39,249 nucleotides of DNA. Origin: a virus (Duplodnaviria > Heunggongvirae > Uroviricota > Caudoviricetes). How positions within the stretch are numbered: position 1 is the stretch's first letter; every line of letters starts with the position of its first letter. Below the pieces are notes generated by a model. That model was not told the origin of the DNA, did no database searches, and was given only the letters and a program-made list of their open reading frames with translations. The DNA is taken from IMG/VR virus record IMGVR_UViG_2519899835_000006; one strand, written 5' to 3'. Of the stretch, positions 6,805 to 7,878 are shown one piece after another. The translations under genes were made by a program, and so were the position numbers.

Positions 6805-7056
6805 ATGTCTGATCGTAAGTACAAAAACCCTCAAGTGAATCTGAGGCTTCCTGTAGAGATAAAGGAACGTCTTATTGAACTGGCTGAGGCTAATTCTCGT
6901 TCATTAAATGCTGAGATGGTAGCAGCACTTGAGGCATGGACTGAAAAAAATAAACATATTCAAGCACTAGATCTTGCAACTATAGCATCGCGGTTGATAG
7001 AGCTTGAGCATGAGGTTGAGAAGTTAAAATGTATGCATGGCAACAGTGAAAAATGA
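6805..7056 (+). CDS. mnt: Mnt-like ribbon-helix-helix repressor
   Basis: 83 aa (same length as P22 Mnt); N-terminal RHH signature NPQVNLRLPVEIKERLIELAEANSRSLNAEMVAAL; divergent from arc/ant. Confidence 0.65.
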   Translation: MSDRKYKNPQVNLRLPVEIKERLIELAEANSRSLNAEMVAALEAWTEKNKHIQALDLATIASRLIELEHEVEKLKCMHGNSEK

Positions 7057-7367
7057 AACGTATCGCTATTTTGTTAATATTGTTCTTCTCTACAATAGTT
7101 TTCGCCAAACCAAAATCAGATAATGGCGATCTTAAAGGCCTGCAAGAACTCATGATAACTTCGAAATTTGCTGGCATGTGCGGCACAATCAAACAAATGG
7201 CAACATTTCAAGAATCAACAAAAATGCCTGGCGGAGATGAGTTCTTACAGCGTTTTCTGACCACAGAGCAAGCAAGACTAGGAATGAATCCACAGGAATT
7301 TCTTGAAGCATGCCAGAAGTCAATTTCAGCTTATACCAATTATTACAATCTAACTTCTGATAAATAA
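7053..7367 (+). CDS. Small secreted (periplasmic) protein, unknown function; start overlaps mnt stop (ATGA)
   Basis: 104 aa with N-terminal signal peptide MKRIAILLILFFSTIVFA; AT-rich; occupies the sieA-equivalent position between mnt and the ejection-protein genes. Confidence 0.55.
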   Translation: MKRIAILLILFFSTIVFAKPKSDNGDLKGLQELMITSKFAGMCGTIKQMATFQESTKMPGGDEFLQRFLTTEQARLGMNPQEFLEACQKSISAYTNYYNLTSDK

Positions 7368-7392
7368 TAGAAAGGATTTTATAAATAACTTT

Positions 7393-7878
7393 ATGAAAAA
7401 ATCACTATTAATTATCCCGCTTCTGCTGGCTGGATGCGCAAAAGTAAGTGACTACCAAGCAAGTTGCGAACAACGCTATCCAAAGCTTAGTGATATGGCT
7501 AATTGCCTTGATGCCAGCGTGAAGAACGACTCACGCATGGCATCAGCACCAACACCTAAGCTGTATGTCCTTGCTGCGAAGATGCTCGGGCAAGGTGTCG
7601 ATCAAGGCAAGATAAGTGACGCACAGGCAAGACTTGAGCTACAGAATCTTTATGTTCAATTACAAAGCCAAGAACAAGCCCAACAAATAGCACAAAGCCA
7701 AGCATTCCAGCAGGCTTTATTGAATTATCAGGCTGTAAACACAATGCAAGCGATCGAGCAAAAAGCGCGCCAGCCTGTTATAACTCAACATTACCCAACA
7801 CGCGTTGACACATATACAAACTGCAATTCAGGATTTGGAAACACGGTAACATGCAACAGTAGCAGTAATATCAGGTAG
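7393..7878 (+). CDS. Lipoprotein, unknown function (candidate superinfection-exclusion/moron protein)
   Basis: 161 aa; lipobox LLAGC after a signal peptide, +2 residue Ala; Gln-rich central region. Confidence 0.6.
   Translation: MKKSLLIIPLLLAGCAKVSDYQASCEQRYPKLSDMANCLDASVKNDSRMASAPTPKLYVLAAKMLGQGVDQGKISDAQARLELQNLYVQLQSQEQAQQIAQSQAFQQALLNYQAVNTMQAIEQKARQPVITQHYPTRVDTYTNCNSGFGNTVTCNSSSNIR

Follow-up and report, generated by a model that had tools for sequence, protein, structure and literature searches.

Uncharacterised cargo genes for two predicted exported proteins in the 'ant moron' of a P22-like prophage

Between gene 16 and the tailspike gene, P22-like phages carry a hypervariable interval, the 'ant moron', which contains genes of unknown function (Villafane et al. 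2008, PMC2629481). In the annotation of P22, the order across this interval is gene 16, a convergent sieA gene with its own promoter, a terminator, an operon comprising orf59a and mnt, arc-ant and gene 9. SieA, of which types A, B and C are distinguished, is a polytopic inner-membrane protein with a cytoplasmic FxRYPxEAxxFNK motif and a demonstrated exclusion function, and its gene is carried by 22 of the 66 sequenced P22-like phages (PMC10883804). We have analyzed the corresponding interval of the IMG/VR virus record IMGVR_UViG_2519899835_000006, a DNA of 39,249 nucleotides hereafter called the window, and more specifically two of its genes, orf104 and orf161, which encode a predicted secreted protein of 104 residues and a predicted outer-membrane-type lipoprotein of 161 residues. 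Both are uncharacterised cargo of the known P22-like 'ant moron' and represent no categorical novelty. They are independent modules that lie next to each other in an arrangement of the O104:H4 type, and not an obligate pair.

Other phage and prophage proteins also act in the envelope. Cor (phi80, N15) and Llp (T5) are outer-membrane lipoproteins that inactivate FhuA. T4 Spackle, an inhibitor of tail lysozyme, and P1 Sim are periplasmic exclusion proteins. Bor and other prophage lipoproteins have been proposed to be envelope factors of benefit to the host.

The orf59a and sieA slots in the P22-like gene order

The whole window is a complete P22-like (Lederbergvirus-type) prophage with its integrase gene from base 1, and the region 6700-8000 is 99.9% identical to the tRNA-Arg prophage of E. 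coli O104:H4 outbreak strains (e.g. 2011C-3493, C227-11 and HUSEC2011). The gene order was that of the immI or 'ant moron' region of P22-like phages (gp16-type gene, cargo, mnt, arc, ant, tailspike), and mnt and the cargo are, as in these phages, on the strand opposite to the late genes. As in the published account of the 'ant moron', the interval holds mnt, arc and ant together with genes of unknown function; that account, however, does not single out the orf104 or the orf161 family (PMC2629481).

An earlier note on this DNA had placed two genes between mnt and the ejection-protein gene, at 7053-7878, and both open reading frames (ORFs) were confirmed: orf104 at 7053-7367 and orf161 at 7393-7878, each on the + strand. 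The start codon of orf104 overlaps the stop codon of the mnt-like ribbon-helix-helix repressor gene (6805-7056, + strand; Pfam Arc domain, E 2.9e-10; 94% identity to mnt of phage CUS-3) in an ATGA at 7053-7056, which that note had also read correctly. On its other side, orf161 is convergent with a gp16-type ejection (DNA transfer) protein gene (7893-9740, - strand), named 'DNA transfer protein' or 'P22-gp16 family phage DNA ejection protein' in RefSeq, and the gap between the two is 14 bp. Comparison of this order with that of P22 therefore assigns orf161 to the sieA slot and orf104 to the orf59a slot, in keeping with the earlier remark that P22 has sieA at the same position. Both genes had been called AT-rich. 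This holds for orf104 (37.1% GC), as it does for mnt (39.7%), but orf161, at 44.4%, is about average for the window (46.2%).

In tblastn searches with type A SieA of P22 and type B SieA of E. coli HS1, neither the window nor any of about 145 loci, about 130 of them carrying orf104 or orf161, gave a match, except P22 itself. The motif FxRYPxEAxxFNK is absent from the translations of orf104 and orf161, and neither protein has the polytopic inner-membrane topology of SieA: in both, the N-terminal signal sequence is the sole hydrophobic stretch. The products thus appear to be exported rather than polytopic, as had been proposed. The absence of SieA matches from the loci searched fits the alternative occupancy of one slot, though it is no proof of equal function. 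Like sieA, orf161 converges on gene 16 and runs counter to the late operon; SieA and the orf161 family are both expressed from prophages and confined to P22-like prophages of the same genera, and orf161 would share the envelope location. They differ in that orf161 is a predicted lipoprotein with no transmembrane segment and no similarity to SieA, for which exclusion, unlike for orf161, has been demonstrated.

Predicted export and conservation of the two products

The N-terminus of orf161 reads MKKSLLIIPLLLAGC followed by AK. A lipobox, LLAGC, follows the hydrophobic (h-) region of the signal peptide, with Ala at +2 and Lys at +3, which agrees with the lipoprotein rule that we used ([LVI][ASTG][GA]C, without the Asp at +2 that marks avoidance of the Lol system). 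In E. coli, the residue at +2 governs Lol-dependent sorting to the outer membrane; in view of its Ala, we infer from the sequence that orf161 is sorted to this membrane. Its predicted lipidated residue, Cys15, is invariant in all 27 aligned homologues, which come from many genera, and so are Cys25, Cys38 and Cys154, whereas Gly14 is conserved in at least 90% of them. The protein is Gln-rich, as had been stated (13% of residues, the densest part being 84-120, with 13 Gln out of 37). Its structure model, with a pLDDT of 64 overall and of about 80 for residues 20-100, comprises a small helical domain containing Cys25 and Cys38, a Gln-rich helix of about 50 residues (approximately 76-125), a Pro-containing linker and, with low confidence, a C-terminal Cys-x9-Cys hairpin.

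The N-terminus of orf104 reads MKRIAILLILFFSTIVFA followed by KPK and displays a basic n-region (MKR), a hydrophobic core, and Val at -3 and Ala at -1. By reading of the sequence, this makes a signal peptidase I site, with cleavage between VFA and K, and an equivalent leader is present in the full-length members of the family. The protein is predicted to be exported by the Sec pathway and to have a mature part of about 85 residues. The two descriptions given in the earlier note, a signal-peptide protein of 104 residues and a lipoprotein of 161 residues with LLAGC and Ala at +2, were therefore both recovered from the translations as predictions of export. In aligned homologues of orf104, Cys43, Cys87 and a loop, FQESTKMPGGDEF, are invariant or nearly so. 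The structure model (pLDDT 78) consists of a signal helix and a three-helix bundle, with Cys43 in helix 1 and Cys87 in helix 3.

Both proteins matched PHROG families over their full length, orf104 phrog_19844 (E 7.1e-64, residues 1-104) and orf161 phrog_6067 (E 4.1e-109, residues 1-161), each labelled 'unknown function'. Neither gave anything above noise in Pfam, NCBIfam or PADLOC-DB v2 (no PADLOC match at E <= 1), and alignment-based searches against sequence profiles of the Protein Data Bank (PDB) retrieved no solved structure. These results agree with the earlier statement that no described system is recognisable here. Clear homology to a characterised non-defence protein had been named as grounds for refutation, and profile searches found none for either protein. 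No literature was found under the RefSeq protein accessions or under guessed O104:H4 locus tags (O3K_).

Two candidate homologues of orf161 were rejected. A match to GspK (E 8e-4; 19 bits, where the cut-off is 130) fell in the Gln-rich helix and was spurious; it probably explains the name 'GspK' found once in a database. QseG (YfhG), an outer-membrane lipoprotein of E. coli, resembles orf161 in its lipobox, its helical domain with two Cys and its Gln-rich helix, but it is a chromosomal signalling accessory protein, and hhalign gave a probability of 0.4% over 8 aligned columns, without a Pfam match. The logic of Cor and Llp had also been invoked for the two genes. It has anatomy in its favour but no backing in homology: the PHROG match to Cor (phrog_1119, E 0.078) covers residues 1-29 only, i.e. 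the signal peptide. Cor and Llp, which block the entry of related phages by acting at the outer membrane on its periplasmic side, are like orf161 small phage-encoded lipoproteins, but orf161 has about twice their length and includes a long helix rich in Gln, and P22-like phages use the O-antigen rather than FhuA.

The coding sequence of orf161 is under strong purifying selection. Comparison with 55 distinct alleles of the same length from related loci yielded a dN/dS of 0.02-0.08 at a dS of 0.17-0.78; the ratio rose to about 0.2 with the closest alleles, which differ at few sites. The protein has remained about 98% identical among these alleles despite substantial drift at silent sites. These low ratios, together with the full-length PHROG matches of both proteins, indicate that orf104 and orf161 are real genes and not chance ORFs.

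At 90% identity, the orf161 family comprises about 100 clusters, all from Enterobacterales and from at least eleven genera, the hosts being Escherichia, Salmonella, Citrobacter, Serratia, Klebsiella aerogenes, Yersinia, Pectobacterium, Proteus, Morganella, Providencia and Xenorhabdus. Every context examined was a P22-like prophage in which orf161 is convergent with, and abuts, a gp16-type gene (Pfam Phage_P22_gp16 in these neighbours), and this was so even where mnt, arc and ant are missing. In Yersinia ruckeri, for instance, orf161 is the sole gene that separates the tailspike gene from gp16, and mnt, arc and ant are all lacking. The adjoining gp16 shares from 34 to 100% identity with that of the window, whereas orf161 itself shares 96-100%. 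A profile search for distant relatives added only one protein, P0125 (32% identity, 140 residues). On the Logan contigs that carry it (L132 and L133), P0125 is encoded by a lone opposite-strand gene within the tail cluster of a different phage, next to a Peptidase_S74 fibre gene and a gene for a 1,220-residue protein with an InPase domain.

The orf104 family is much broader. An exhaustive hidden Markov model (HMM) search returned 287 clusters (at 50% identity), of which 205 had E <= 1e-10, against only 18 by a word-indexed search. The members are nearly all about 100 residues long and have the signal peptide, the Cys pair and the loop motif in common; they lack Pfam domains, and their names are uninformative. 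A few (P0135, P0253 and P0265; 174-208 residues) are tandem duplications of the domain. The hosts include Yersinia, Pseudomonas, Methylophaga, Oceanospirillales, Nitrosomonas, Chromatiaceae and one Pseudobdellovibrionaceae genome, so that the family extends over Gamma- and Betaproteobacteria and to this last genome, far beyond P22-like phages. Such a spread argues against a receptor-masking role of orf104 specific to P22-like phages, receptor masking being one of the roles put forward earlier. The genes were found in integrase/AlpA islands, in Pseudomonas prophages and at plain chromosomal loci, and no constant partner gene was seen in the contexts examined outside P22-like phages.

Modular arrangement and transcription of the two genes

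The earlier note had treated orf104 and orf161 as a pair. The contexts contradict this, as they do a single two-gene system. Upstream of orf161, in 80 IMG/VR loci, we found mnt, as the immediate neighbour, in about 30, a gene for a 121-residue protein in about 18, a divergent gene for a PEGA-like lipoprotein (phrog_6823) in about 16, and orf104 in about 10. Conversely, orf161 was present at about 11 of 43 orf104 loci, and other cargo followed orf104 alleles in 12 of the 22 loci in which these are coupled to mnt. Among 5,426 complete E. coli genomes, 186 carry orf161 (among them those of the 2011 O104:H4 outbreak clone and of LF82, a strain associated with Crohn's disease) and 61 a member of the orf104 family; only 18, mostly O104:H4 clones, have both. 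In L017-L028, small cargo directed to the envelope forms a mosaic in the mnt-gp16 interval, between the orf104-like gene and gp16; it includes a 60-residue signal-peptide protein, a 74-residue protein with two hydrophobic segments, a 61-residue coiled-coil protein, a 121-residue protein and homologues of P22 orf59a.

In P22-like prophages, the ATGA overlap recurs, next to three different alleles of mnt, in a 72%-identical allele of orf104, which is then followed by other cargo. More distant relatives (48-52% identity), among them Kapi1_059, a homologue that the Kapi1 paper does not address, are uncoupled from mnt and adjoin the ejection genes. An orf104-like gene also occurs on IMG/VR contigs of 32-52 kb that are not P22-like (L029-L031), after ant, arc and a gene for a 142-residue Mnt-like protein; these contigs carry a gene of tape-measure size (1,045 residues), and other small secreted proteins are encoded after the orf104-like gene. 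The presence of orf104-like genes behind mnt-like genes in several settings, and elsewhere too, makes them a recurrent, not a specific, passenger of mnt-type repressor operons.

The designation 'Mnt operon' is secure for orf104 only, and not for orf161. In all other architectures (e.g. L060, L068 and L108), orf161 stands behind a conserved leader of its own, AAAACTAAGGAGAGTTAAYYAT-ATG, with a strong Shine-Dalgarno sequence; the leader of the Gally type is AAAACTAAGGAGAGTTAACCAT. In the window, a sequence scan found no terminator-like site between mnt, orf104 and orf161, which makes co-transcription of the three genes plausible, and we treat them as a putative operon. Transcription would start from the only sigma-70-like site of the arc-mnt intergenic region (TTGATA-17-TATCCT, 6748-6776, + strand), a candidate Pmnt. 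This site lies in a control region (6719-6776) recognised by repeats and consensus matches only: two tandem 21-bp repeats (GGTACGCAT...) occupy 6719-6760, and a 17-nt imperfect palindrome at 6735-6771 overlaps the sigma-70-like site. By analogy with the annotated Pmnt/Pant operators of P22, these elements are probably the Arc and Mnt operators plus Pmnt. At the other end, a hairpin at 7859-7905 spans the stop codons of orf161 and gp16; with a modest fold z-score (-1.9) and no T-run, it is not a canonical bidirectional terminator.

Expression in lysogens, which had been suggested, is documented for the family of orf161 through one published copy. This is GALLYPH_13, 98% identical to orf161, in prophage Gally of E. 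coli LF82. In LB medium, GALLYPH_13 reached 70 normalised reads in RNA-seq, against a prophage median of 15.6, i.e. 4.5-fold (PMC9928086, S1 Table). Its log2 expression was about 8 in DMEM and 10.3 after 1 h in macrophages, where it came third in the prophage behind c2 (12.0) and GALLYPH_14 (11.0), and in these uninduced lysogens the late genes of Gally were at background (PMC9928086). GALLYPH_14 (L001 3448-3867, - strand) encodes a 139-residue lipoprotein of phrog_6823, of unknown function, and is a frequent divergent neighbour of orf161.

Among the other genes of the window, an arc-like repressor gene (6559-6699, - strand; Pfam Arc domain, E 3.4e-08) and an ant-like antirepressor gene (5448-6392, - strand; the identical O104:H4 gene is called 'phage repressor protein/antirepressor Ant' in RefSeq) complete the immI region. 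A gene for a 640-residue protein of the acyltransferase family (1375-3297, + strand) lies between the integrase and tailspike genes, at the usual site of O-antigen-modifying lysogenic-conversion genes in P22-/Sf6-like phages. An antisense ORF of 70 residues (6980-7192, - strand) crosses the mnt/orf104 junction and is also open (74-81 residues) in loci with the 72%-identical allele; AT-rich codon usage has probably produced it as a side effect.

Possible functions of orf161 and orf104

Whereas gene structure, export signals, conservation, purifying selection, slot equivalence, module independence and the transcription of the near-identical Gally copy are shown by the data above, the functional statements that follow are ones that we infer. 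Our best explanation, which we estimate at somewhat below an even chance, is that the two are independent 'ant moron' cargo genes, of which orf161 specifies an envelope exclusion factor and orf104 a periplasmic inhibitor or 'immunity'-type protein. According to this explanation, the prophage would express orf161 counter to its late operon, and the product would be anchored in the outer membrane, at the inner leaflet, from which the helical domain and the long Gln-rich helix would reach into the periplasm. There, it might hinder an early step of infection by P22-like phages, either penetration of the outer membrane or assembly of the gp7/gp20/gp16 ejection conduit. By its translational coupling to mnt, orf104 would be produced whenever the lysogen produces Mnt, and its product probably binds a conserved periplasmic target, not as a component specific to P22 but in the manner of a protective inhibitor or 'immunity'-type protein; we suppose a conserved target because the family is so broad. 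It resembles T4 Spackle and P1 Sim in being, by prediction, a small, Sec-exported, soluble periplasmic protein, and those proteins, made by a resident phage, keep out incoming phage DNA.

For orf161 taken separately, a prophage-expressed envelope factor that excludes P22-like phages is a tentative proposal, about as probable as the joint explanation. It is favoured by the sieA slot, the absence of SieA from the orf161 loci examined, the confinement to a single phage lineage in many hosts, also where immI is missing, the predicted envelope location and the transcription of the family in a lysogen.

Several observations weigh against these proposals. The near-invariance of orf161 (98% amino acid identity) beside hypervariable gp16 and gp20 would be unexpected in an arms race with these two proteins, and a conserved host target fits it equally well. 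A role in host physiology accounts equally well for the induction of orf161 in macrophages. In LB, the 4.5-fold ratio of GALLYPH_13 is just below the 5-fold cut-off for morons, and the gene is not among the morons scored in the LF82 study (PMC9928086). The missing SieA matches may mean no more than that orf161 and sieA are alternative cassettes for a single physical site. A tandem-duplicated relative of orf104 lies between the Hsp33 and aspartokinase genes of an ordinary chromosome, and such chromosomal relatives fit a general role in the periplasm, independent of phage defence. Finally, in the window the leader of orf161 is gone: in the window-type arrangement, the recombination junction falls exactly at its ATG, which is preceded by the 3' end of orf104 and 25 bp (7368-7392), and only an AAAGGA 15 nt before the start replaces the strong Shine-Dalgarno sequence. 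Expression of orf161 may for this reason be weak here. In IMGVR_UViG_2778261223_000025 (L008/L052), which has the same orf104-orf161 arrangement, orf161 starts with ATA instead of ATG, and this may be incipient pseudogenisation.

We considered the possibility that the two proteins are lysogenic-conversion factors that benefit the host by altering the physiology of the envelope (stress, serum or macrophage resistance, colonisation), as proposed for Bor. This would agree with the induction of GALLYPH_13 and GALLYPH_14 in DMEM and, strongly, in macrophages, with the very strong purifying selection on orf161, which fits a conserved host target, and with the occurrence of orf104 relatives in non-phage chromosomes and islands. 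Yet, deletion of the whole Gally prophage left the survival of LF82 in macrophages unchanged (PMC9928086). Furthermore, orf161 is confined to one lineage and one slot in many genera, whereas generic fitness morons usually switch phage types. We regard this possibility as having perhaps one chance in a few, clearly less than the exclusion reading.

A slightly less probable alternative concerns orf104, which might be stand-alone cargo unrelated to orf161, namely an orphan periplasmic immunity protein or inhibitor directed against a type VI secretion system (T6SS) effector, a colicin-type toxin or a lysozyme/transglycosylase. The small size of the protein, its secretion, helical fold and disulfide bond (all predicted) and the extreme conservation of its surface loop would suit such a role, as would its wide distribution on islands and prophages with no constant partner and with tandem-duplicated versions. 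However, no cognate toxin gene lay beside any of the orf104 members examined, and no sequence or fold match linked the protein to known immunity or inhibitor families.

It is improbable that the genes serve the phage itself in its lytic cycle, either by preventing progeny from ejecting their DNA into the debris of lysed cells, as T5 Llp does, or by helping to disrupt the envelope. The idea has in its favour that orf161, a predicted envelope lipoprotein, is conserved beside the genes for virion and ejection proteins in every P22-like lineage that was examined. Yet, orf161 is on the strand opposite to the late operon, its near-identical copy is expressed in uninduced lysogens with late genes at background, and the prophage already possesses a complete cassette of holin-endolysin-spanin size (ORFs at 22530-23777). 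As to decaying or non-functional remnants in a recombination hotspot, a very improbable reading, the highly mosaic character of the region and the lost leader and start codon mentioned above would allow for it, but the conservation data largely refute it, since both frames are intact, dN/dS is low, the Cys and motifs are invariant across genera and a near-identical orf161 is transcribed.

Coming back to exclusion by orf161 and inhibition by orf104, a wider version of this explanation, to which we also give perhaps one chance in a few, is that orf161 founds a new exclusion family of outer-membrane lipoproteins for short-tailed P22-like phages, which would act from the side of the outer membrane on its penetration or on the ejection-protein conduit and would functionally replace the inner-membrane protein SieA in the two-thirds of P22-like phages without sieA, and that orf104, independently, represents a widespread, unnamed family of periplasmic inhibitors carried by mobile elements as protective cargo. 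Independently of this, the orf104 family, with its 287 clusters, is a sizeable unnamed periplasmic protein family that has no Pfam model. About one-third of the sequenced P22-like phages carry sieA (PMC10883804), and orf161, conserved from Escherichia to Xenorhabdus and Proteus, is the commonest occupant of the slot that we saw in E. coli. If orf161 does block the entry of P22-like phages, it would provide a second handle, on the outer-membrane side, on how podovirus ejection proteins cross the envelope, and would bear on host range in phage therapy.

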